Below are positions 35,216 through 49,275 of a stretch of DNA of 64,000 nucleotides, one piece after another. Source of the stretch: Longimicrobiales bacterium (GTDB lineage: Bacteria > Gemmatimonadota > Gemmatimonadetes > Longimicrobiales > Gaopeijiaceae); the NCBI GenBank assembly GCA_041690395.1, contig JAWLHJ010000005.1, forward strand, positions 288,001-352,000, read 5' to 3'. The notes beneath the pieces were generated by a model that was not told where the DNA came from, made no database searches, and saw only the letters and a program-made list of their open reading frames with translations. The stretch's first letter is position 1, and every line of letters starts with the position of its first letter. Position numbers and translations under genes: made by a program.

Positions 35216-37861
35216 TCACTCCTCCCGCAGCACCGCAGCCGGATCCACCCGCGCCGCGCCGACGGCCGGCACCAGACACGCGACGCCCGAGACGGCCACG
35301 AGCAGCACCGCGGCTGCCGCCAACGCCAGCGGATCGCGCGGCTCGACCTCGTAGAGCAGCGCGGAGAGGCCACCCGTCAGCGGCAGGGTGGCCAGGAGGC
35401 CGACGGCGAGCCCCGCGAGCGTGAGCCGGAGCCCCTGCCAGACCGTGCGGCCGATCACCGAGCCGGGTGCGCCGCCCAGGGCGAGCCGGACGGCGATGTC
35501 GGACCGCCTGCGCTGCACGAAGTGCGCGGTGATGCCGTACAGACCGATGACCGCCAGGGCGAGCGCGACCGCGGAGAAGGTGCCGAGCAGGAGGGACAGA
35601 TGGCGCGGGCGGGTGAACGAGTCGTGTAGGAGGCTCGCACCCGTGGCCATGGAGACGATGGGCACCGAGGGGTCGGTCTGCCGGAGCGCCTCACGAACTG
35701 CCGAGGCCGCCGTCCCGGGATCGCCGGAGGTCCGGACGATGAGCCAGGCGTTGACCAGCCCCGCGCGCGTCGGCTCGTACATGGCGCCGAGCGGGCTCGT
35801 GCCCACCCCCTGGTACGGGACGGTCGAGGCCACGCCGACGATGGTCGTTCGCGGCCCGGACGTCCGGCCTCCGGCGTACAAACGGCGGCCCACCGGGCTC
35901 TCTCCCGGATAGTGGAGGCGCGCCCAGACCTCGTCCACGACGACCACGGGGGGCGCCCCCTCGTCGAGATCACCGGCCCCGAAGCCGCGCCCTTCGACGA
36001 TCGGGATCCCCATGACGTCGAAGTACGAGCGGTCGACGGTGATCCAGGGAGCCACCGGCTCCGACTCTCCGGCCGGAGGGGGCCGGTCCTCGAGCCGGAA
36101 GTTGTTGACGTTGCCGACATCGTCCGGGGGGCGCTCGCTCGACAGGGTCACGCCGGCGACCCCGGGGATGGCCGCCAGGCTCGAGATGGCCGGCTCCCAG
36201 AAGTCCGCCCGACGCCCCCCGTTCGCGTAACGCGTGGGGCCCAGCGCGACGTTCACCATGAGGAGCTCCTCGGCGGCGTAACCCGGCTCGACGTCCTGGA
36301 GCTTGGCGAAGCTCGCCAGGAGGAGCGTGGTGCCGACCAAGAGCGGCGTGACGACGGCGAGCTGTCCGGCCACGAGCAGGCGCTGGGTGCGCTGCTGCGA
36401 GCGTCCGTCCGTCGACGAGCGGCCGCCCGAGCGGAGGTCCGCGCCCAGGTGGACGTCCTTCCGTCCGTGGATCGCCGGGACGATCGCGAACAGGAACGTG
36501 GCCATGCCGGCCAGCCCGGACGCGAATGCGACCGTGTACCCTCCGAGCGTGGCCTCCCCGGCCCGGGGGAGCCAATCTCCCGCGACCACGGGCAGCGCGC
36601 GGATGCCGACGTAGGCCGACGCCAGGCCCAGCGCGCCGCCGAGCCCCGCGAGCCAGGCGCTCTCCGCCGCGAGGTGCCACCAGATGCGCCCGTCGGAGGC
36701 CCCGAGCGCGCGCCGAACGGCCATCTCGCGGGCTCGCGACCCGAATCGGGCGAGCAGGAGGTTGACCGCGTTGGTGACGGCGATCAGCAACATGAGCCCC
36801 ACGGCTCCCATCAGTACGCCGAGTAGCGGTCCGGCCTCACCGCGCGCATAGGCGGTGACGTCCTCGAGGCCCCAGCTTGCCCTCCGGTCCTGGTAGCTGT
36901 CGGCCCAGAGGGGAAACAGCTCCTCGTTCAGCGCGCGCAGCTCCGTCCGAGCCGCGGCGGGCTCCACGCCCGGAGCCAGGCGGCCGAACACGGTCAGGAA
37001 GAACGGGCCCTTACGCGATGGCGGCTCGAGCCGCAGCGTCGGCACGATCTCGCTGCCGCGGGCGAGAGGCCCGAGGTCCGGGGGCAGGATGCCGATGACC
37101 TCCCAGGGCTGGTCGTCGAGCGTCAGGGTGCGGCCGATGGCGTCCGCCGGCGTCGCCACGCCCATCCGGCGCTCGGCGAACCCGGCGGTGACCATGACCG
37201 TGGCCGGTGCGTCCGGAGCGCCCTCCGCCCGGGTGGGCGTCCGGCCCCAGCGCGGCGCGAGACCCCAGGTCTCGAGCAGGCCGGGCGTCGCCTCGACGAC
37301 GCGCATCAGCTCCACCCCGCCATCGCCGGCGAGGGCCCGCGACGCGTTTCGGTAGGCGCCCACGCGCTCGAACGAAGTCTGTCGCGCCTCGAGCGCCTGG
37401 AAGTCGACGACGGAGAAGGGGAAGCGGTTCGGCGGAGCGTCGGTGTAGATCCGCGCGACCCGGTCGGCGTCGGGGTAGGGCAGCGGGCTCAGGTAGAGGG
37501 CCTCCACCATGGAAAAGACGACGGCGCAGCCCGCGATCCCCAGGGCGAGGGTGGCGACGATCGTCAGGGAGAGCACCGGGGATGACGCCAGGCCCCGCCC
37601 GGCGCGTCGAAGCTCACCGTCCCCGCCTCCCGGGAGGCGGGCGGTCGCGCGCACACGTCGCAGCGCGAGCAGGACCGGGTAGCGTCGGAGCTGCCGCAGG
37701 TAGCGTCGGTCGGCCTCGGGCACGCCGTGCCGCGCCGCGACGGCCGCGTGCAGCTCCGCGAGCTCGGCCAGGACGAGCCGACGCTCCCGCTCGTCGATGA
37801 GCCTGGCGAGCGCCCAGGCGATCGGGCCGGGGACCGGGGGCGGCGATCCTGGCCCGCTCAT
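35216..37861 (-). CDS. ADOP-type duplicated ABC permease
   Basis: TLALGIAG, LLIAVTNAVNLLL, REMAVRRALGA, AVRLALG, ends VDPAAVLREE. ATGA overlap with the PadR stop. Confidence 0.9.
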   Translation of the reverse strand: MSGPGSPPPVPGPIAWALARLIDERERRLVLAELAELHAAVAARHGVPEADRRYLRQLRRYPVLLALRRVRATARLPGGGDGELRRAGRGLASSPVLSLTIVATLALGIAGCAVVFSMVEALYLSPLPYPDADRVARIYTDAPPNRFPFSVVDFQALEARQTSFERVGAYRNASRALAGDGGVELMRVVEATPGLLETWGLAPRWGRTPTRAEGAPDAPATVMVTAGFAERRMGVATPADAIGRTLTLDDQPWEVIGILPPDLGPLARGSEIVPTLRLEPPSRKGPFFLTVFGRLAPGVEPAAARTELRALNEELFPLWADSYQDRRASWGLEDVTAYARGEAGPLLGVLMGAVGLMLLIAVTNAVNLLLARFGSRAREMAVRRALGASDGRIWWHLAAESAWLAGLGGALGLASAYVGIRALPVVAGDWLPRAGEATLGGYTVAFASGLAGMATFLFAIVPAIHGRKDVHLGADLRSGGRSSTDGRSQQRTQRLLVAGQLAVVTPLLVGTTLLLASFAKLQDVEPGYAAEELLMVNVALGPTRYANGGRRADFWEPAISSLAAIPGVAGVTLSSERPPDDVGNVNNFRLEDRPPPAGESEPVAPWITVDRSYFDVMGIPIVEGRGFGAGDLDEGAPPVVVVDEVWARLHYPGESPVGRRLYAGGRTSGPRTTIVGVASTVPYQGVGTSPLGAMYEPTRAGLVNAWLIVRTSGDPGTAASAVREALRQTDPSVPIVSMATGASLLHDSFTRPRHLSLLLGTFSAVALALAVIGLYGITAHFVQRRRSDIAVRLALGGAPGSVIGRTVWQGLRLTLAGLAVGLLATLPLTGGLSALLYEVEPRDPLALAAAAVLLVAVSGVACLVPAVGAARVDPAAVLREE

Positions 37862-38187
37862 GCTTCCTCCGCGACCCCGTCGAGCCCCTCCCAGAAGCGC
37901 TCGAAGGTTCGGCGGGTCTCCCGGAGCTTCTCGAGGCCTTCGGGGGTCACGCGGAACCACCGCCGCTCCCGCCCGGTCTCGGTCTCGGACGCGGCCTCCA
38001 TCCGCGACCGGACGAGCCCCTTCTCTTCCAGCCGGCAGAGCGCGATGTAGACCGCCGCCTGAGATATCTCGCGTCCGCCGCGCTCCTCGAGCTCGAGGAC
38101 CATGGGCACGCTGTACGATTCTCCGCCCAACTGGAGGATCGTCAGCATCACCTGCTGCTCGAACTCACCCAATCCACGTCGTCCCAA
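37858..38187 (-). CDS. PadR family transcriptional regulator
   Basis: LGEFEQQVMLTIL, AAVYIALCRLEEKGLV, RRWFRVT. Confidence 0.9.
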   Translation of the reverse strand: MGRRGLGEFEQQVMLTILQLGGESYSVPMVLELEERGGREISQAAVYIALCRLEEKGLVRSRMEAASETETGRERRWFRVTPEGLEKLRETRRTFERFWEGLDGVAEEA

Positions 38188-38300: not shown

Positions 38301-39848
38301 TCACCCGCCGAAGAGTCTCGGCAGGATGAGCGTCCCGGCCAGCGTCACGACGATGACTGCGACCAGGTTCACCCACAGCCCCACCCGCACCATCTGACCG
38401 ATGGTGACGTAGCCGGAGCTGAACACGATGGCGTTCGGCGGCGTGCCGGCGGGCATCATGAACGCCATGGAGCAGGCGATGGCGGTCGAGGCCATGAGCG
38501 CGACCGGCGGGATGCCCAGCGTGATCGCGATGCCGGCCGTGATGGGCATGGCCATGGCCGTGACGGCCGTGTTGGAGGTGATCTCCGTGAGGAAGACGAA
38601 GAGGGCCACGGTCGCACCGATCACGACGATCGCCGGCGCGCCGGCGAGCGCGGCCACGCTTCCTCCGATCCACTCCGCGAGCCCACTCGAGGACATGCCC
38701 AGCGCCAGGCTGAGCCCACCACCGAACAGCAGCAGCACGCCCCAGGGAATCTGCGAGGCGGTCCGCCAATCGAGCGCGACCGAGCCCGACCGCCAGTCCA
38801 GAGGCCACGCGAAGAGTGCCAGGGCGGCCAGCATGGCTATGGTGGCGTCGGTGACCTCCGGGAAGAGCATGGTGAGGCCGGGCAGGGTCACGAAGCCCAG
38901 ATCCTTAGGCACGCGGGCCATCCAGGCGGCCACGGTCAGGAGGAAGACCAGGGTCACGTACCGCTCCCCTCGGGACGCGGGCCCGAGTGAGGCACGCTCG
39001 GCCGCGAGGAGCTCGGCGGGATCGCCGGCCGGTGTCTCGGGCGGGTAGAGCACGACGAGGGCCAACCAGGAGAGGGGAAGGAGCAGTCCCGCTACCGGAA
39101 GCCCGACGGCCAGCCACTCCAGGAAGCCGATCTCGATGCCGAGCAGCTCGGACGCGGCGGCGGCGAAGAGCGCGTTGGGTGCCGTCCCGATGAGCGTCGC
39201 GACGCCGCCGATGGAGGAGGCGTACGCGATGCCGAGCATGAGCGCGACGCCGAAGTTGTACGAGCGCCGAGGGTCGCCGTGAGCCGCCTCGGCCTGAGCG
39301 GGCGTCCGGGCCGGCTCGAACATCCGCCCCAGCGCCGTCGCGATCGGGAGCATCATGGCGGCCGTCGCCGTGTTGTTGATCCACATCGAGACGAAGGCGG
39401 TCGCGAACATGAAGCCGAACAGGAGCTTGCGCGGGCTCGTGCCGGTGCGGCTCATGACCGCGAGGGCGAACCGGCGGTGCACCCCCCAACGCTCCATCGC
39501 CCCGGCGAGGAAGAAGCTTCCCATGAAGAGGAAGATGATCTCGTTGGCGTACGGGGTGGCCGCCTCCTGCATCGTCGTGATGCCGAGGAGCGGGAAGAGC
39601 ACGAGGGGGAGGAGCGCGGTGGCGGAGATGGGCACCGCCTCCGTGAGCCACCAGCTCCCCATGAGCGCCAGGACCGCGGCCACCTTCCATGCCACCGGAG
39701 AGAGCGGGGCCGGCGGCGGGATGACGAGCAGGAGGAGGAACAGGGTCACGCCGAGCACGAGCCCGATCCGGCGCGCGGGACTGACCGCCGGGGGCACGAG
39801 TCCGCTCGGCGGCGTCCCGCCCGTCTTTGCCTTCGGTCCGACCGTCAT
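38301..39848 (-). CDS. DASS/SLC13 family dicarboxylate or sulfate:cation symporter
   Basis: WWLTEAVP, SMWINNTATAAMMLP, SIGGVATLIGTAPN, TEITSNTA, AFMMPAGTPPNAIV. Confidence 0.93.
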   Translation of the reverse strand: MTVGPKAKTGGTPPSGLVPPAVSPARRIGLVLGVTLFLLLLVIPPPAPLSPVAWKVAAVLALMGSWWLTEAVPISATALLPLVLFPLLGITTMQEAATPYANEIIFLFMGSFFLAGAMERWGVHRRFALAVMSRTGTSPRKLLFGFMFATAFVSMWINNTATAAMMLPIATALGRMFEPARTPAQAEAAHGDPRRSYNFGVALMLGIAYASSIGGVATLIGTAPNALFAAAASELLGIEIGFLEWLAVGLPVAGLLLPLSWLALVVLYPPETPAGDPAELLAAERASLGPASRGERYVTLVFLLTVAAWMARVPKDLGFVTLPGLTMLFPEVTDATIAMLAALALFAWPLDWRSGSVALDWRTASQIPWGVLLLFGGGLSLALGMSSSGLAEWIGGSVAALAGAPAIVVIGATVALFVFLTEITSNTAVTAMAMPITAGIAITLGIPPVALMASTAIACSMAFMMPAGTPPNAIVFSSGYVTIGQMVRVGLWVNLVAVIVVTLAGTLILPRLFGG

Positions 39849-40224
39849 GACCGCGGCTCCAGCGCGTTGGCGATCACCGACGCCAGGATGCCGACGGCCA
39901 GGATGCCCGCAACCATGGCCAGGCTGAATCCGGCCGGGATCGAGTCGATGGCGAACATGACGTCCGACGACTCGACCATGAGGAGCACCAGGAAGAGCGG
40001 CGTGGCGTGCCGGACCCCGTCCCGCGTCGTGAAGAATCGTGCGCCGTCGAACTCTGTCGTCACCGGCATCCAGCGGCGAGCCAACCGGTACGCGAGGTTA
40101 CCCTCGGGCCACGCGAGCGCCGTCCGCATGGGAATGACGTGCGGGCGGCGGTTGAACACGCCCAGGTCGAGGGCGAGGAGGAGCAGGATGACGAGGACGA
40201 ACCCGCTCCACACGAGCGTGGTCG

Positions 40225-40228
<4 letters not shown>
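39845..40228 (-). pseudogene. TerC/Alx family gene with two in-frame internal deletions (127 aa)
   Basis: TerC N-terminus LALDLGVFNRRPHV, central PVTTEFDGARFF...ATPLFLVL...DVMFAIDSIPA and the final TM helix are joined directly. Confidence 0.75.
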
Positions 40229-41565
<1,337 letters not shown>

Positions 41566-41616
41566 GAGGGGGAGGGTGTCGGAGGAAATGATGACGAGGA
41601 AGGAGGGCGGCGCGAG

Positions 41617-41646
41617 GGCCTCCGCCCCCGAGCGGGGACGGAGGCC
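41617..41646 (-). terminator. GC-rich hairpin after small-protein copy B
   Basis: Minus strand GGCCTCCGTCCCC-gctc-GGGGGCGGAGGCC, followed by a pyrimidine-rich tract. Confidence 0.45.
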
Positions 41647-41661
41647 TTCTCGGGCCGTGGA

Positions 41662-41856
41662 TCACACGGGGGTCTTGGTCCCGCCCCCGCGGGGCCGGCC
41701 GAACCACAGCACGGCGATCGCGGACGCCACGATCAGGATCAGCGCGAAGATCGACGCCGGGTCACGTGGAAGGGACTGGAGGACTTCGTTGCCGGTGAGG
41801 CCGTCGTCGGCGCTCTGCAGCGCGAGGATGGCTGGAAGAAGAATCTGGGTCGTCAT
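41662..41856 (-). CDS. Small single-TM membrane protein, copy B (64 aa)
   Basis: LQSADDGLTG...LPRDPASIFALILIV...VLWFGRPRGGGT. Strong SD GGGAGGGG. Paralog at 42485-42694. Confidence 0.8.
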   Translation of the reverse strand: MTTQILLPAILALQSADDGLTGNEVLQSLPRDPASIFALILIVASAIAVLWFGRPRGGGTKTPV

Positions 41857-41957
41857 GGTACACCCCTCCCGGGGGTGGTCGGACTACGGTTCTGAGCAGG
41901 CCCCGCGGGAATTCGTGGGGCGCGGAATCTCGGGAGCGGCCGTGTGGCCACTCGTGC

Positions 41958-42320
41958 TCAGGCGTGGGGAGGGGCGTTGGCAGGTGCTGCGTGGAGGCCC
42001 AGGAGCGACGCGCTCGACCGGACCGGCTCGAGCTCCGGCGTGCTCGGCCCTTGGACTCCGTGTGCGGGCGACGTGGGGCGCGGTGAGGCGCGTCCACCGG
42101 AGCGACGGGCACGCGGCGGGGATGATGCGTCCCCGGCATGCAGGGTGGCGGTCCAGGCAGACGTGGGCACCACGACGGCAGTGCTTCCGTCCTGCAGGGC
42201 GACGCCCGGCCCGACGTCGGGTCCCGTGCGGGTCGACGGCTCCGGGTACGACAGAGCCCCGACGCATACGATGAAAAGCGTCAGGGCCAACCAGCGAGCC
42301 CGCTTCACGGCCTCGCGCAT
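41958..42320 (-). CDS. Signal-peptide leader ORF ending LLGLHAAPANAPPHA (candidate arrest peptide), copy B
   Basis: N-terminal basic plus hydrophobic segment, low-complexity linker, and a C-terminus conserved with 42784-43146. Confidence 0.7.
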   Translation of the reverse strand: MREAVKRARWLALTLFIVCVGALSYPEPSTRTGPDVGPGVALQDGSTAVVVPTSAWTATLHAGDASSPPRARRSGGRASPRPTSPAHGVQGPSTPELEPVRSSASLLGLHAAPANAPPHA

Positions 42321-42484
42321 CGTTCGCTACCTGCCTGTAGTCGCCTCCGTCGCGGCGGTTCGGACGAGCCGCTGCAACGGACCTGCGGGAAATTTAGCGT
42401 GCCGGGGGTCCGACAAGAAGATCCCCCGCACCCCCGCGAAGGCCCCCGCCCCCGGGAAGGGACGGGGGGCTCGCGTGCGGGTAG

Positions 42485-42694
42485 TCAGCTCGCTCTGTCC
42501 TGCGCGCCGCGGCTCGCGGTTCCGCCGCCGCGCGGCCGCCCGAACCAGAGCACGGCTCCGGCGCCCACCACGATCAACAGGAGTGCGAAGATCGAGACCG
42601 GGTCGCGGGGAAGGCCCTGGATGATCTCGCTTCCGGTGAGGCCTTCATCGGCGCTCTGGAGTGCCACGAGGGCCGGCAGTATGTACGTCGTCAT
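42485..42694 (-). CDS. Small single-TM membrane protein, copy A (69 aa)
   Basis: MTTYILPALVALQSADEGLTGSEIIQGLPRDPVSIFALLLIV...VLWFGRPRGGGT. Same SD as copy B. Confidence 0.8.
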   Translation of the reverse strand: MTTYILPALVALQSADEGLTGSEIIQGLPRDPVSIFALLLIVVGAGAVLWFGRPRGGGTASRGAQDRAS

Positions 42695-42783
42695 TGGATA
42701 CACCCCTCCCTGGGGTCGACAGTCTGAAGAGGGCCACGGGAACCGTGGCCCGAGTACGTCCGGCGCGGCCGTAGGCCGCGGGC

Positions 42784-43146
42784 TCAGACGTGGGGAGGGG
42801 CGTTCGCGGGTGCGGCCAGAAGGCCCAGGAGCGCGGCGCCTGACCGGATGACGAGGAGGTCGGGGTTGCTGGGACCCCGGAGCAGGGCTCCCGCGCGGAG
42901 CTGCGGGTGCCGACCCGCCCGGCCGGTATGGCGCTCGGGCGTGGGCGAGGACGAGTCCCCGGATTCCGCGGCACTGGCCCACGTGGAGGTGGGTGCCGCG
43001 GTGCTGGGGACGCCGCCCTGCAGGACGAGCCTCGCCCCGCCGTCCGGCCCGGGAAGGGCGGACGGTGTCGGGAACGCGAGAGCCCCCGCGCCGATGAGGA
43101 GGAGCGCCAGGGCCGTCCCGCGAGTCCGCATCAGGGTCTCGCGCAT
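42784..43146 (-). CDS. Signal-peptide leader ORF ending LLGLLAAPANAPPHV (candidate arrest peptide), copy A
   Basis: MRETLMRTRGTALALLLIGAGALAFP...; 120 aa, the same length as copy B. Confidence 0.7.
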   Translation of the reverse strand: MRETLMRTRGTALALLLIGAGALAFPTPSALPGPDGGARLVLQGGVPSTAAPTSTWASAAESGDSSSPTPERHTGRAGRHPQLRAGALLRGPSNPDLLVIRSGAALLGLLAAPANAPPHV

Positions 43147-43295
43147 CGGCTGTGTCCTGCGACGGGTCACGAATGCCCGGCCACGCCGTTCGGCCGCGGC
43201 AATCGTCGAAAGCTAGCTCGTCCGTTCCGGGTGACGAAGCCCCGGGGGTGGCGGACCGCAGTGGCGGTGCCGGCCCCCCGGGGCGGCCCGGGTGT

Positions 43296-43823
43296 TCAGA
43301 GCTCCGGGAAGGTCAGTCCGAAGCGCCGGCACAGCCCCGGCACGCTGTCGAAATCCATCTCGAGGTCGAACTCCGCGTTGATGCGGGCGAAGGCTTCCAC
43401 GTCGCCCCACGCGTCGGCCACCTTACGGAAGTAGTCCTCGAACCCTCCGGGCGAGATCACCTCGATGATGTGACACGGGGTGTCGCCCGCGTTCCAGAAC
43501 GTGTGCCACTGGCCGCGCGGCTTGAAGACCCAGCTGCCCGCCTCGGCCACGACGACCTCGTCCCCGAGGAGCGCGCCGAGCTTTCCCTCGAGCACGTACG
43601 AGTACTCATCCTCGTTGTGGTGGCGATGGAGCGGCGCCGCGAGGGCGTGCGGGGCCAATGGATGATGGACGACGCTGAAGTGTCCGTCGGTCGCGTCGGC
43701 GTCGATCTTCCAGTGGACGCCGAGCCCGCCGAAGTCGAAGCTGTCGCCCCCGTCGGCCGGGATCCGGACGGCGGGGCTCGCGTGTTCCTGGGTGGGTGCG
43801 CTGGAAAGGCTGGAGGGTGTCAT
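43296..43823 (-). CDS. Cupin domain protein
   Basis: PLHRHHNEDEYSYVLEG, KPRGQWHTFWN, ISPGGFEDYF. Confidence 0.9.
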   Translation of the reverse strand: MTPSSLSSAPTQEHASPAVRIPADGGDSFDFGGLGVHWKIDADATDGHFSVVHHPLAPHALAAPLHRHHNEDEYSYVLEGKLGALLGDEVVVAEAGSWVFKPRGQWHTFWNAGDTPCHIIEVISPGGFEDYFRKVADAWGDVEAFARINAEFDLEMDFDSVPGLCRRFGLTFPEL

Positions 43824-44239: not shown

Positions 44240-44289
44240 TTGACCTGAATGTCTCAGTTCAACAGATTGACCTGAGGCGTTCAGGTGAA
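44240..44289 (+). promoter_or_regulatory. Two tandem 23-bp palindromes, putative PadR operators
   Basis: TTGACCTGA-N5-TCAGTTCAA (44240-44262) and TTGACCTGA-N5-TCAGGTGAA (44267-44289), upstream of padR. Confidence 0.7.
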
Positions 44290-44319
44290 CGTCGCCATCA
44301 TTCGTCCGGGGAACCGATC

Positions 44320-44661
44320 ATGACACCCACGCCCATGGGCCCCGTGCAGGGCACGCTGGAGCTGCTCGTCCTCAAGTCGCTCGCGACCGGGGGCGAGATG
44401 CACGGCTTCGGGATCCTCGACTGGATGCGCCGCACCACGGGCGAGGAGATCGTCGTGGAGGACGGCGCGCTCTACCACGCGCTGCACCGGATGAAGAAGC
44501 GTGGGTGGGTGAGCGCCGAGTGGGGCGTCTCGGACAAGGGACGCCGGGCCCGCTACTACGGGCTCACCGACAAGGGACGGGCCGCGCTCGCCGAGGAGGA
44601 GGCGCGTTGGTCGAGATACGTGGCGGCGGTCGCCCGCATCACCGGAGCGGAGCCCGCGTGA
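44320..44661 (+). CDS. PadR family transcriptional regulator (acidobacterial-type)
   Basis: QGTLELLVLKSL, HGFGI, GALYHALHRM, WGVSDKGRRARYY. Confidence 0.93.
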   Translation: MTPTPMGPVQGTLELLVLKSLATGGEMHGFGILDWMRRTTGEEIVVEDGALYHALHRMKKRGWVSAEWGVSDKGRRARYYGLTDKGRAALAEEEARWSRYVAAVARITGAEPA

Positions 44662-44674
44662 CGAGGGGAAGTTC

Positions 44675-47401
44675 GTGATACGTCTGTCGCGGATTCGCGA
44701 AGTGCTCGGGGCGATCGTGCGGCGCTTCGACCCGTCGGACGACGTCGACGAGGAGATCCGGCATCACCTGGAGGAGATGGTGGACGCGCTCCGGGCGGAG
44801 GGCCTGCCGCGCGAGCGGGCGCGGCGCGAGGCGGAGCGGCGTTTCGGGAGCGTGCGACGGCATCGGGATGCGTTGGTGCGGTTGAACCGGAGGGGGGAGA
44901 CGATGCGGAGGGGACTGGAGACGGCACGGCGCGTGTGGGGCGAGGTGAGGCAGGCGGCGCGGGGGCTCGCGCGAAATCCCGGATTCTCGCTGGGTGTGCT
45001 CGCGACGCTCGGGCTCGGCATCGGGGTGAACGGGGCCATGTTCGCGGTGACGGACCGGCTGCTGCTGCGTGCGCCGGATCACATCGAGCGCCCGGACGAG
45101 GTGCGTCGGGTTCTCACGCTCCGCAGCAGATTCGACGCTCCCTCCTACGGGGCTTCGATGACGTATCCGGACCTCGACGACCTTCGGACGGTGGGTGAGT
45201 TCACCGCCGCTGCCGGCTACTCGGGTCCACGCACCAGGACCCTGGGCGAAGGCGCCGAGGCGATGCGCGTGGAGACCGTCGGGGCGAGCCACGACTTCTT
45301 CACGCTGCTCGGAGTCGGTCCGGCCCTGGGACGCTTTCCGTCGCCTGAGGACGACGAGGTCGAGGCCGCCCCCACGGCCGTGCTGGACTGGGACTTCTGG
45401 CAGCGGAGCTTCGGTGGAACGCCCGACGTCCTGGGCACGTCCATCGAGATCGACGGGGTCGCCTACACGGTCATCGGGGTGACGCCCCGGGGCTTCACCG
45501 GCGTCGACATGAGTCGGGTGGACGTGTGGATCCCGCTCGTTCCGTACGGGATGCTGCAGTGGGGCCGGTACGACTTCCATGAGAGTCGCGGCTTCTGGTG
45601 GATGCGCCTCATCGTCCGCGCCGAGGATGATGCGCGACTGGCGGCCGCGGAGGAAGCCACGACGGCCCTGCACCGGAACGCCCGGCAGGAGGAGATCGAG
45701 ACCGGGCGCTACGACCCCGACGCACGCATCGTGACGGCTCCGCTCATCGCGGCGCGGGGGCCACTGGCGTCGGACGAGTCGCGGGTCGCGCTCTGGCTGT
45801 CGGGCGTGGCCCTGTTGGTGCTGCTGATCGCGTGCGCGAACGTGGCCAACCTGCTGCTGGCCCGCGGTGAGCAGCGCAGGCGAGAGGAGGCCGTGCGGCT
45901 CTCTCTGGGCATCTCCCGCGCGGGGCTCCTGCGGGGAGCCATGCTCGAGGCCCTGATCCTGGCGGGCGCGGGCGGCGTGCTCGCGCTCGGGCTCGCGCAT
46001 TGGGGCGCGGTCGTCATCCGGGACACCCTGATGCCCGACGTCTACTGGGCCGGGTCGGCGGTGGATGCCCGTCTGGCGGGGTTCATGGCGGGCGTGGCCA
46101 TGGTCGCCGGCCTCGTCGCGGGGATCGGGCCGGCGCTCCGGAGCGCTCGTGCGGACGTGGCCGTGCAGCTCCAGAACGGCGGGCGGGGCAATGCCGGCCG
46201 TCGCTCGCGCCTCCGGAACGGCCTCGCGGTGGCCCAGGTCGCACTCTCCGTCGTGCTGCTGGTGGGGGCCGGCCTGTTCGTCCGCAGCCTGGCCGAAGTG
46301 CGCGGCCTCGACCTGGGAGTCGACGTCGATCGGCTGGCCGTCGTCCGGCTCGAGGTCGATGGAACCGCATCGATGTTCGGTCAGGAGACGGAGGAGGAAC
46401 GAGTGGCGAACACCGCCCTCTACGAGGAGGCGACGCGCATCGCCCGGGAGGCGGACGGGGTGGCCTCCGTCTCGCTTACCATGTCGCCGTTCGGATGGGC
46501 GTTCTCCGCCGGGATCCGGGTGCCTGGGCTCGACTCGATTCCCGATCTCCCCGGCGGCGGTCCGTATTACGTGGGTGCCGACGAGCACTACCTGTCCACG
46601 CTCGGTATCGAGGTGCTGAGAGGCCGCGGCCTCGAGGCCGCCGATCGAGCCGAGGGAACCCACGTGGCGGTCATCAGCGAGACCATGGCGCGCACGCTGT
46701 GGCCGCGTGAGGACGCGCTCGGCAAGTGCTTCTACCACGGAGAGGAGGAGGACACGCCGTGCACGACGGTCGTTGGCGTGGCCGAGGACGTCACTCGCGG
46801 GTCTCTACAGGAGGAGGCACACATGGCTTACTACGTGCCTCTCACCGTGGATGGCCCCGCACCGCGCGGGATGTACGTGCGGACTACGTCGGACGACGCG
46901 GCGGCCGTCGCCTCGGCGCTGGCGCGTCCGCTGCGCTCGTTCTCGCCCCGCGTGCGCTACGCGTCCGTCGAGACGCTCCGTGACGCGCTGGATCCCCAGG
47001 CGCGCGCCTGGTCCCTCGGCGCGACGCTCTTCTCGGCGTTCGGGGTGCTGGCGCTGCTGGTGGCGGTCGTCGGGCTCTACAGCCTACTCGCGTTCGACGT
47101 CGCCGACCGCACCCGGGAGCTGGGCATCCGGTCGGCGTTGGGCGCCAGCAAGCAGGGGCTACTCCGCGGCGTCGTGGTTCGCGGCGTCGGGCTCGCCGTG
47201 GCGGGCGTGGCTCTCGGCTCGACGGTTGCCCTGTGGCTGGCGCCCAGAGTGGAGGACCTCCTCTTCGGCGTCGCCGCGCGCGATCCGCTCGTCCTCACGA
47301 CCGTGGCTGTCGTGCTCGTTGGGGCCGGCGCGCTCGCGTCCTGGGTGCCGGGCATGAGGGCCACGAGTGTCGATCCGATGGAGGCGTTGCGGTCGGAGTG
47401 A
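44675..47401 (+). CDS. ADOP-type duplicated ABC permease with permease-prefix domain
   Basis: DVDEEIRHHLE...AERRFG, LGLGIGVNGAMF, LLIACANVANLLL, RELGIRSALGA, VDPMEALRSE. Confidence 0.92.
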   Translation: MIRLSRIREVLGAIVRRFDPSDDVDEEIRHHLEEMVDALRAEGLPRERARREAERRFGSVRRHRDALVRLNRRGETMRRGLETARRVWGEVRQAARGLARNPGFSLGVLATLGLGIGVNGAMFAVTDRLLLRAPDHIERPDEVRRVLTLRSRFDAPSYGASMTYPDLDDLRTVGEFTAAAGYSGPRTRTLGEGAEAMRVETVGASHDFFTLLGVGPALGRFPSPEDDEVEAAPTAVLDWDFWQRSFGGTPDVLGTSIEIDGVAYTVIGVTPRGFTGVDMSRVDVWIPLVPYGMLQWGRYDFHESRGFWWMRLIVRAEDDARLAAAEEATTALHRNARQEEIETGRYDPDARIVTAPLIAARGPLASDESRVALWLSGVALLVLLIACANVANLLLARGEQRRREEAVRLSLGISRAGLLRGAMLEALILAGAGGVLALGLAHWGAVVIRDTLMPDVYWAGSAVDARLAGFMAGVAMVAGLVAGIGPALRSARADVAVQLQNGGRGNAGRRSRLRNGLAVAQVALSVVLLVGAGLFVRSLAEVRGLDLGVDVDRLAVVRLEVDGTASMFGQETEEERVANTALYEEATRIAREADGVASVSLTMSPFGWAFSAGIRVPGLDSIPDLPGGGPYYVGADEHYLSTLGIEVLRGRGLEAADRAEGTHVAVISETMARTLWPREDALGKCFYHGEEEDTPCTTVVGVAEDVTRGSLQEEAHMAYYVPLTVDGPAPRGMYVRTTSDDAAAVASALARPLRSFSPRVRYASVETLRDALDPQARAWSLGATLFSAFGVLALLVAVVGLYSLLAFDVADRTRELGIRSALGASKQGLLRGVVVRGVGLAVAGVALGSTVALWLAPRVEDLLFGVAARDPLVLTTVAVVLVGAGALASWVPGMRATSVDPMEALRSE

Positions 47402-47449: not shown

Positions 47450-47954
47450 GGCAGCTTCGGAGGTCGGCACGCGGGTGCTGGGCGGGTGGGCAGCTTCTGG
47501 GAGTCGGCACGCGGGTGCTGGGGAGCGCCCCCCGTGTTCGCGAGCGCCCCCCCGTGCTGGGGAGAGCCGCCCCCCGTGCTCGCGAGCGCCGCGCCGTACC
47601 GACGATCGTGGCCGGCCGGTACCGGGATGCGGTCGCGGAGGCGGTCGCGGAGGCGGTCGCGGAGGGTGCCGGTGGCAGAAATCGCACATCGGTGCCGCCG
47701 CGAGGCGGCGGCGTCATTTTGTCGCCAGATGTGGCGCCGGGTCTCACGAGCGTCAGAGTGGCCGGTCTTTGCGCGTCATCGTTCCGCCACATGAGGTAGT
47801 CGACACGACATGCGCGGTGTGGCCTCTCCGTCATGTCATCTTTCCGCCAGGCTCCTTCCGGATTCCGCCAGGCTCCTCGTGGCCGACGATGGTCCCCGTC
47901 CAGGCCCCCCGGCGTGGCGGCCCCGTCCAGGCCCCCCGGCGTGGCGGCCCCGTC
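47450..47954. repeat. Cluster of unrelated short tandem duplications
   Basis: GGCAGCTTC..GTCGGCACGCGGGTGCTGGG x2; CGCCCCCCGTG(T/C)TCGCGAGCGCC x2; GCGGTCGCGGAG x3 (47629-47664); TTCCGCCAGGCTCCT x2; a 27-nt unit x2 (47894-47954). Confidence 0.85.
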
Positions 47955-48081: not shown

Positions 48082-49023
48082 ATGACCCATGCACCCTCCT
48101 CTCGTGGACACCTCACCTCGGGCGAACGCCCCACCGTGGAGCAGGCCGCGGAACGAATCGCGGCCGGTCAACACGGCGTCGTCACTCGGGGACAACTCCT
48201 TTCCGCCGGGTGTCCCGCCCGCACCGTGGACCGGCGGGTGGCGACCGGCCGCCTCCGCGCCGTACACCGCGGTGTGTACACGCTCGGGCCCGTCCAGGCG
48301 CCGGGCATGGAGGAGATGGCGGCGGTCCTCGCCTGCGGGCGCCACGCACTCGTCAGCCACGCCAGCGCCGGTGTCCTGTGGCGCATTCTCCGTCCCGACT
48401 TCCGCCCGACTGCTGCCCACGTGATCCTCGTCGGCAGGCACCGAGCCCGCCCGGGCATCCGGATCCATCGCGTCGCCGAACTCGCGCCGGATGAGCGCAG
48501 CGTCCGAGACGGCATCCCCCTGACCAGCCCTTCGCGTACCCTCTACGACCTGGCCAGCGTGCTCAAGCCTCGCGCTCTCGAGCAGGCGGTGGCCGAAGCG
48601 ATCGCCCTCCGCCTCGTCGCGCTGGAGGGTCTGGCGGCGGCGGCCGAACGCTACCGGGGCCGGCTGGGCGCGGGTCGATTCCGACAAGTGGTCAAAGGCG
48701 ATGCAAGACCGAGCCGGACCCGTTCCACGGCCGAAGAACGCTTTCTGGCCCTCGTACGTAAGGCGAGCGTCGGCCGGCCGAAGCTCAATACTCCGGTCGC
48801 CGGCCACGAGGTGGACTTCTTCTGGCCCGAGCATCTTCTGGTGGTCGAAGTGGACGGGTGGGCATACCACAGCTCGCCGAAGGCAGTGAGTCGGGATCGC
48901 CGGCGAGACGCGGATCTCGCCACCGCGGGATACCGGGTGCTGCGCATCACGTGGCGAGAGATCGTCCATCGACCGGAGGCGCTGCTGGTGCGTCTCGGGC
49001 GCGCTCTGGCGGTGGGGCGTTGA
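48082..49023 (+). CDS. AbiEi-like N-terminal domain fused to a DUF559 (Vsr-like PD-(D/E)xK) endonuclease
   Basis: QHGVVTRGQL, VHRGVY, SHASA, TSPSRTLYDL, RSTAEERF, EVDFFWP...VEVDGWAYH...DRRRD...GYRVLRITW. Confidence 0.88.
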   Translation: MTHAPSSRGHLTSGERPTVEQAAERIAAGQHGVVTRGQLLSAGCPARTVDRRVATGRLRAVHRGVYTLGPVQAPGMEEMAAVLACGRHALVSHASAGVLWRILRPDFRPTAAHVILVGRHRARPGIRIHRVAELAPDERSVRDGIPLTSPSRTLYDLASVLKPRALEQAVAEAIALRLVALEGLAAAAERYRGRLGAGRFRQVVKGDARPSRTRSTAEERFLALVRKASVGRPKLNTPVAGHEVDFFWPEHLLVVEVDGWAYHSSPKAVSRDRRRDADLATAGYRVLRITWREIVHRPEALLVRLGRALAVGR

Positions 49024-49127
49024 GCCGGAGGTGCGCGGCGCGTCGAGCGAAAGTGGGTGGGGCGTTGAGCCCGAGGTGCGCGGCGCGTCGAGCGAAGGTG
49101 GGCGGGGTGTTGAGCCCGAGGTGCGCG
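49011..49127. repeat. 45-bp tandem repeat, about 2.6 copies, overlapping the nuclease stop codon
   Basis: GGTGGGGCGTTGAGCC(G/C)GAGGTGCGCGGCGCGTCGAGCGAA(A/G)GTG at 49011 and 49056, partial copy at 49101. Confidence 0.9.
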
Positions 49128-49275
49128 TGGCGGTGAGCCCGGAGTGCGTGGCGCGTTGAGCTCAGGGTTGACGATGCCTGGCGATCGGACTCCAAATCCT
49201 GCACCATGTCAGGTATCCCGTGTACGGGGGATGCACCGTACACGGCTCCGCTTGTTACCGTCGTCCGGAGGTCCC

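Follow-up and report, generated by a model that had tools for sequence, protein, structure and literature searches.

A proline-ended leader reading frame that co-varies with the Shine–Dalgarno region of a predicted small membrane protein gene in Gemmatimonadota bacteria

The question raised by this locus is whether the proline codons that end a leader peptide can also hold shut the ribosome binding site (RBS) of the gene behind it. The window, by which we mean the whole 64,000-nucleotide stretch of Longimicrobiales DNA analysed, carries on its minus strand a tandem pair of one module, the copies lying ∼830 nt apart. In each, a leader ORF of ∼120 aa is followed by a structured spacer of 89 or 101 nt (∼95) and then by an ORF of 64 or 69 aa. 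The features of the two copies and of the genes that follow are these:

42784–43146, minus strand: leader ORF, copy 2, ∼120 aa; signal-peptide-like N-terminus, spacer, tail LLGLLAAPANAPPHV-stop
42793–42803, minus strand: predicted anti-SD strand, copy 2, in the N-A-P-P codons
42764–42780, minus strand: predicted spacer hairpin 1, copy 2
42731–42751, minus strand: predicted spacer hairpin 2, copy 2
42723–42727, minus strand: TCAGA, copy 2; complementary to the leader stop-codon region, a possible inner helix, the minimum free energy (MFE) fold picking another partner
42700–42710, minus strand: SD of small gene, copy 2; GGGAGGGGTGT, 5 nt before the ATG at 42694
42485–42694, minus strand: small membrane protein gene, copy 2, 69 aa; LPRDPVS, predicted TM helix, FGRPRGG
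42435–42471, minus strand: GC-rich hairpin (repeat D5) behind small gene 2, then a terminator-like site at 42442–42423
41958–42320, minus strand: leader ORF, copy 1, 120 aa; signal-peptide-like N-terminus, spacer, tail LLGLHAAPANAPPHA-stop
41967–41977, minus strand: predicted anti-SD strand, copy 1, in the N-A-P-P codons
41934–41953, minus strand: predicted spacer hairpin 1, copy 1
41900–41921, minus strand: predicted spacer hairpin 2, copy 1
41891–41895, minus strand: TCAGA, copy 1; paired with the stop-codon region in the MFE fold (inner helix)
41860–41870, minus strand: SD of small gene, copy 1; GGGAGGGGTGT, 3 nt before the ATG at 41856
41662–41856, minus strand: small membrane protein gene, copy 1, 64 aa; model helices 6–17, 22–27 and 33–52, the last confident and hydrophobic
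41611–41647, minus strand: GC-rich hairpin (repeat D5) behind small gene 1, with no U-tract found
40225–41565, minus strand: dicarboxylate/amino acid:cation symporter (SDF, PF00375), 96 nt downstream of small gene 1
39845–40228, minus strand: short TerC-family remnant, 127 aa; start overlaps the SDF stop
38301–39848, minus strand: sodium:sulfate symporter family carrier (PF00939); start overlaps the stop of the TerC remnant

The copy 2 leader probably starts at the ATG at 43146 or 43131, in a frame that is open as far as a GTG at 43170. The genome (69% GC) has no copies of the small gene other than these two. They are not a recent duplication, since in the small-protein tree copy 2 clusters with the only copy present in another species (support 97/85); the copy 2 leader is 83% identical to the leader of that species, against 47% to leader copy 1. 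No sigma-70 consensus promoter was found in 41500–43350, and no Rfam entry matched near its gathering score.

A sequence-only reading of the window had proposed that the N-A-P-P codons of the leader act as an anti-SD for the small gene. These codons, AAC GCC CCT CCC, do lie in frame at 41967–41978 and 42793–42804, two codons before the stop, and the SD is identical in the two copies. The proposed helix of 11 bp, with one G-U, folds in the MFE structure of both, with predicted pair probabilities of 0.92–1.0 when 400 nt of leader context are included. The T-ending proline codon is as unusual as had been remarked, CCT making up 5.2% of the proline codons in the long GC3-rich ORFs of this genome, and against synonymous recodings of the last 10 codons the pairing of the window copies has p = 0.005 and 0.015.

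Matches to the small protein occur in 64 of the 301 family genomes searched (E up to 0.01) and, in a less exhaustive profile search across the phylum, in 16 of 401; the gene pair is widespread in Gemmatimonadota bacteria. Homologous loci were taken from these family and phylum searches, minus the 16 weakest places of the family search. Four of the 64 distinct matches were dropped (L047 and L048, other proteins; L010, at a contig edge; L058, without a start), leaving 60 loci. The leader was then picked blind to prolines, as an upstream ORF with a hydrophobic segment 55–170 aa before its stop, and was found in 47 of the 60. All 47 have Pro-Pro within their last 14 residues, ending APP or PPP (TAPP 16, NAPP 14, RPPP 9, LPPP 5, RAPP 2, IPPP 1), with 2–7 residues after the four-residue motif. 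The background frequency of APP/PPP ends in this genome is 2–3% (71/3443 predicted genes; 522/16551 open segments in any frame). Among the 13 loci without a picked leader, L008 falls narrowly below the cut and ends TAPP, L060 is cut by the contig and also ends TAPP, and L020 has RPPP on a longer ORF; the small gene is carried without such a leader by 10 of the 60 loci. In L009 and L013, which have no full leader, the SD lies in a predicted local hairpin and remnants resembling the leader N-terminus stand upstream of the small gene, and L009 also has a short signal-like ORF that seems to terminate on the start codon of the small gene. In L053 and L054 the small gene lies directly behind a transglycosylase gene with a proline-rich C-tail (GPPLPPPP), which may be a substitute pause or a coincidence.

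The co-variation of leader and SD was measured as the duplex energy of each leader's last 30 coding nucleotides with the −20 to −1 region of every locus, row and column effects being removed. Leaders pair with the SD region of their own locus in excess of expectation by −4.4 kcal/mol (z −10.5, 47 loci), whereas six control windows placed 30–180 nt further upstream give no excess (|z| at most 1.2). At 40 of the 47 loci the SD pairs better with its own tail than with the median foreign tail; at seven it does not. These z values overstate the certainty, because kin are not independent. When each genus is represented by a single drawn locus (20 genera, 200 draws), z ranges from −3.7 to −7.6, about −5.4, and within the four genera that have 5–9 loci the p-values are 0.001–0.006. 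On the other hand, shared descent makes foreign pairs look more like own pairs, and the within-genus result speaks against a clade artefact.

When the last 10 codons are recoded synonymously, the pairing weakens in 42 of 47 leaders, with p at most 0.05 in 23. A CTCC/GGAG core is present at 36 loci and absent from 11. The three pairs 3′ of CTCC are formed in 27, 24 and 19 of those 36, against 16, 13 and 11 expected from the marginals, although these counts lean high because the register was chosen to maximise the helix. At the pairs adjoining the core, C-G, G-C, A-U and U-A all occur, in several genera. There are exceptions: L011 pairs worse than its own synonymous recodings (p 0.98), and L050 has CCA, which breaks one pair. 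Random proline codons without SD complementarity, which the sequence-only reading had named as the pattern that would count against it, are not what the homologs have; the first proline of the xAPP leaders is CCT in 24 of 32 and the second CCC in 22 of 32, and the pairing is locus-specific with compensatory changes. Its claim that the NAPP codons are the anti-SD holds for the window copies but is too narrow for the family, in which NAPP is one of six motif variants and the anti-SD can slide past the prolines. The rule is better given as the last ∼10 codons, because some xPPP leaders place the anti-SD 15–18 nt after the motif start. We conclude that a conserved, co-varying leader–SD switch is real: complementarity of the leader's last ∼10 codons to the SD, across a structured spacer, is established in the sequences, and the fold that joins them is predicted.

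The spacer itself is structured. Both of the hairpins proposed earlier were found in each copy, and the folding z relative to dinucleotide shuffles is −2.4 and −3.6 for the window spacers, with a mean of −1.7 across loci compared to −0.35 for a leader-body control. A weaker second helix is predicted between the stop region and the −48 to −20 segment (z −3.5 in 44 loci; controls +2.3 and +0.6). A TCAGA motif had also been pointed out in the spacers. It is present in both window copies, but the literal motif occurs at only 5 of the 47 leader-bearing loci and was rejected as a conserved element. Since the stop-region helix accounts for it, TCAGA is best read as a partner of the stop-codon region and not as a sequence motif.

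The leader codes for a protein, which has a segment resembling a signal peptide and a proline tail that is conserved. Its N-terminus is basic and is followed by a hydrophobic stretch, a low-complexity spacer rich in Pro, Gly, Ser, Ala, Arg and Thr, and the tail LLGLxAAPANAPPH[AV]; the C-terminal pattern in the window copies is G-x4-P-x-N-A-P-P, and no Pfam family matches the ORF. Across the set the signal-like segment, a hydrophobic 11-mer with mean KD 2.2–3.35, lies 106–156 aa before the stop and mostly after a basic N-terminus, as judged by hydropathy alone, hydrophobicity also being the criterion by which leaders were selected. Selection on the peptide is indicated by a dN/dS of 0.24–0.60 in all 10 pairs tested, with the lowest pN in the last 16 codons except in one or two pairs; between leader copy 2 and L005, dN/dS is 0.39 and those 16 codons have no amino-acid changes. 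The peptide spacer is nearly unconserved. Stop-free length was rejected as evidence for the leader, shifted frames being open as well in 20 and 33 of the 47, and an attempt to order the motif switches by the small-protein tree failed for poor resolution. When the leader motif was searched as a DNA pattern in 401 genomes (30 loci returned for 42 places), all matches that end a signal-bearing ORF precede the small gene and the rest are chance-like.

Among the 32 xAPP leaders, G(−7) is kept in 26, P(−2) in 29 and A(+1) in all, each encoded by all four codons. Because these residues use every codon while the motif prolines are biased in theirs, the tail is constrained as peptide and as RNA alike. 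In L030, L032, L036, L037, L040, L051 and L063 the anti-SD core starts 15–18 nt past the motif start. There PPP stays, with mixed codons, so the prolines are kept independently of the anti-SD and not just to supply it with C residues.

What a ribosome on these codons would do to the helix was modelled by forcing a 28-nt footprint to be unpaired, with the first proline in the P site, and calculating the cost of opening the RBS. Over the 47 loci the median predicted cost falls from 16.7 to 12.0 kcal/mol, by at least 2 in 39 and by less in eight; for the window copies it falls from 18.0 and 19.4 to 12.0 and 12.7. A short local hairpin round the SD persists in the ON model of both window copies. 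For 80 ordinary GGAG genes the median is 10.5 (quartiles 8.7–13.6, 90th percentile 15.2), calculated with a shorter folding window and hence only roughly comparable. With the footprint at the stop codon instead, the median is 12.8, the window copies give 12.8 and 13.1, and the drop is at least 2 kcal/mol in 32 of 47. The suggestion that a ribosome paused on Pro-Pro would free the RBS thus agrees with the model as regards the opening, while the pause itself is conjectural, and folding alone cannot separate a pause from plain termination because a stop-codon footprint opens the site almost as well.

The latter result fits long-range translational coupling without a regulated pause, in which any finishing ribosome would briefly melt the helix and the small gene would be made in proportion to leader translation. 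The co-variation of the stop region with the spacer, and the lack of Arg in 36 of the 47 leaders, are also in its favour. However, it leaves unexplained a signal peptide at a bounded distance, an APP or PPP end in every leader and a G(−7) and P(−2) retained through synonymous change, and a poorly conserved 120-aa ORF would be a costly device for such coupling. We therefore think it unlikely. The reading we prefer, and consider probable, is a translational attenuator controlled by a pause in the leader and tied to export. EF-P is present, and both APP and PPP are EF-P-dependent pause motifs, although such a motif is not by itself sufficient for EF-P dependence (the available part of PMC3638311). 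In ApcA, ApdA and ApdP the Arg is irreplaceable, according to the portion of PMC12992588 available, and since most leaders here are without it a strong intrinsic arrest is doubtful.

In the proposed scheme, the leader's last codons would hold the small gene's RBS shut, as the folding predicts, and a ribosome pausing on APP or PPP would cover them and free the site. The nascent leader would thread into the Sec translocon, where export pulling and EF-P would normally clear the pause; the ribosome would leave and the helix re-form (OFF). Were export pulling or EF-P action to fall, the ribosome would linger on the prolines and the SD would stay open (ON). The output would be a single-span microprotein and, at loci where the following gene overlaps the stop of the microprotein gene, an ion-coupled transporter made by translational coupling. 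As the leader has no conserved ligand site, what it would sense is most likely a fall in export capacity, or in the ion-motive force behind export.

Several known systems resemble this arrangement. The helices of SecM and MifM also reach into the leader's last codons. VemP of Vibrio, which controls secDF2, is a secreted arrest leader that reports export dependent on the Na+-motive force. The analogy lies in Na+-driven export reporting there and ion-coupled carriers downstream here; unlike the present leaders, VemP has a different motif and its target is the export machinery itself. With SecM, ApdA, ApdP and the RQH substrates, as the accessible parts of their descriptions give them, the leaders share an N-terminal localisation signal, an unconserved spacer and an xAPP near the C-terminus of a 110–160 aa ORF, as well as a downstream SD whose helix would be broken by a stalled ribosome, the helix here being predicted and co-varying. 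The same architecture, with R/H/Q motifs, is found in the available portions of Fujiwara 2024 and 2025 (PMC10987492 and PMC12992588). The R/Q/H-[AG]-P-P or RAGP core of the RAPP/RQH peptides does not describe the present set, in which the first residue is T or N in 30 of 47, xPPP occurs in 15 and R/H/Q-APP in only two; the window copies have NAPP. Unlike that of SecM-type monitoring substrates, the target is a microprotein and not secA, secDF or yidC. The nearest named Atlas clusters to the leader are SecM (0.78) and SecM_small (0.77), a weak lead only. In uDF_NAP-stop, as far as the available account goes, an N-A-P tripeptide likewise stands at the C-terminus of a secretory leader, but there a stop follows at once and is needed for arrest, whereas here a second proline and 2–7 more residues follow.

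CutF demonstrates that a switch of this kind can be driven by a PPP that follows a signal peptide and is relieved by EF-P; on its own, the CutF tail failed to stall a reporter (available parts of PMC9973294; bioRxiv 10.1101/2025.02.05.636593 for the former). With CutF (Rhodobacter) and CruR (Bordetella), both DUF2946, the leaders share, on the part of the descriptions available, a Sec signal and a C-terminal proline motif controlling a stem–loop over the downstream SD. They differ in lacking a Cys/His metal motif and in having targets other than copper genes or TonB receptors, and the stem–loop, intergenic in the available description of CutF (PMC9973294), here uses the proline codons or the next few as its anti-SD. 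This shared architecture raises the possibility that the leader, through its exported part, binds a ligand in the periplasm, for instance a metal, and two metal-type leaders do occur elsewhere in this genome. Nonetheless, no CxxC, CxxxC or CxC lies past the signal region in any of the 47 leaders (nor any Cys there in either window copy), the spacer is nearly unconserved and the DUF2946 profile finds none of the 47 at E up to 1, a profile that is not sensitive here because those two metal-type leaders were also missed by Pfam. Ligand binding is accordingly a highly improbable account. The two metal-type leaders are of known kinds and both lie upstream of a TonB-dependent receptor: at G000:C1:582450–582782, plus strand (L074:651–983), a CruR-like secretory leader with DCAPHHDHAFC and a C-terminal RAPP; and at G000:C3:581199–581678, plus strand (L075:500–979), a secretory His/Cys-rich leader (CRALC) with a QAPP end. 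Although the present leaders would work like SecM and CutF, they are set apart from both families because the defining motif tests of RAPP/RQH and DUF2946 fail.

MgtL is a short peptide without a signal sequence. Like the leader here, in which the pause is presumed, it uses proline-dependent pausing to control a transporter, mgtA, but it acts through Rho (available part of PMC12856214). Since CruR too works through Rho, on the available part of its description, and the spacer is structured, control might be exerted on the transcript, by Rho-dependent termination or by mRNA decay that depends on where the ribosome stands, and SD pairing might be of secondary importance. This is very improbable, in that the co-varying partner is specifically the SD region and neither spacer contains an intrinsic-terminator-like site.

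The protein made from the small gene has ∼60 residues, with a conserved LP[TR]DPAS, a single hydrophobic helix and a tail that is basic and Gly-rich, features that suggest an N-out single-span topology. It has no Pfam match; the best NCBIfam hit, at E 0.02, is unconvincing, the best PDB sequence has E 0.11, Foldseek gave no match and all Atlas matches are under 0.9. Its profile matches 279 clusters at 50% identity, and the named relatives are Gemmatimonadota/Longimicrobiales proteins, all 'hypothetical', with one weak partial match titled Acidimicrobiia. No fused longer forms were found, which is weak evidence. A predicted complex of the small protein with the SDF carrier scored 0.00 and speaks neither for nor against an interaction. 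Our guess, with low confidence, is an accessory or assembly factor for membrane carriers.

A predicted downstream gene is present at 56 homologous loci, on the same strand in 35 and on the opposite strand in 21; the small protein must matter by itself, because the next gene is convergent in those 21. Seventeen of the 35 same-strand genes encode SDF (4), APC/CCC (5), cation:proton antiporter (4), lactate permease (1) or TerC (3) proteins, so that with the window a secondary carrier or TerC comes next in 18 of 36 loci, from 10 genera. By comparison, such carriers are found among upstream neighbours in 2 of 51 cases and among downstream genes on the opposite strand in 4 of 21, and 100 of the 3443 genes of this genome are densely polytopic. 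The likely carrier start overlaps the small-gene stop or lies within 20 nt of it in 11 of the 17 (two being TTG starts read from the sequence); the SDF gene overlaps this stop in relatives, as opposed to the gap of 96 nt in the window. Second downstream genes include NSS, APC and CPA carriers, and 4 of the 17 carrier/TerC loci have no leader. The target, by construction of the set the microprotein, is not a Sec/YidC component, and no Sec/YidC family was found among the 56 further downstream genes scanned.

These neighbours bear on a further alternative, that a real pause reports EF-P activity or prolyl-tRNA supply, as with MgtL, rather than export, and that slow proline decoding would turn on the carriers. 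The alternation of APP and PPP, both EF-P-dependent, the rare CCT at the first proline and the amino-acid carriers (SDF, NSS, APC) downstream would all suit it. We nevertheless judge it quite improbable, as the CCT is accounted for by the anti-SD, proline sensing needs no signal peptide, and cation/proton antiporters, a cation-chloride cotransporter and TerC also lie downstream.

Some features of the surroundings may be recorded here. The TerC gene at 39845–40228 (minus strand), though cut to 127 aa, is still in frame and overlaps both neighbours, because of which translational coupling from the SDF gene to the sodium:sulfate-family carrier would be preserved. At 35216–38187, 44320–47401 and other ∼880-aa ORFs the window has recurring pairs in which a PadR-like ORF of ∼105 aa accompanies an ABC-permease-like ORF of ∼900 aa, and such pairs also flank the module in relatives; the labels come from appearance and from Pfam matches on similar neighbours. 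Short tandem-like repeats at 47486–47610 and 48970–49136, visible as repeating peptide patterns, flank the 47833/48217–49023 ORF, and at 44240–44290 two imperfect TTGACCTGA...TCAG repeats, possibly an operator, lie upstream of a PadR-like gene.

As regards novelty, 'NAPP' and 'Gemmatimonad' are absent from the main texts of PMC10987492 and PMC12992588, and in the portion of the PMC10987492 supplements available Gemmatimonadota appear in the genome list only. In the literature covered, which included few subscription journals, we found no Gemmatimonadota arrest peptide, no NAPP or TAPP arrest motif and no Longimicrobiales account of the small protein. It is possible, though doubtful, that these leaders form an Arg-free export-monitoring class (G-x4-P-x-[NT]-A-P-P or xPPP) whose stalling codons are also the anti-SD and which is dedicated to one membrane microprotein that would itself act as a translational relay. 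In at least 10 genera the cassette stands before TerC or before ion-coupled carriers of several unrelated families (SDF/NSS, APC, CCC, CPA, lactate permease), and Sec pulling force would gauge the ion-motive force to tune ion and solute transport, not the export machinery.

The finding adds a family of probable pause leaders outside the reach of the published screens, which, from the parts of them available, would miss it because they queried R/H/Q motifs or sec/yidC neighbours, or dropped ORFs with an 'unknown' downstream gene. The natural variants NAPP, TAPP, RAPP, RPPP and LPPP on one scaffold offer a test of the role of Arg in RAPP, and of how EF-P-sensitive pauses become regulatory. The leaders are also a clean case of dual coding, in which the constraints of the peptide and of SD pairing are separable across 47 loci, and they draw attention to a family of regulated microproteins in the Gemmatimonadota, a phylum that has been little studied.
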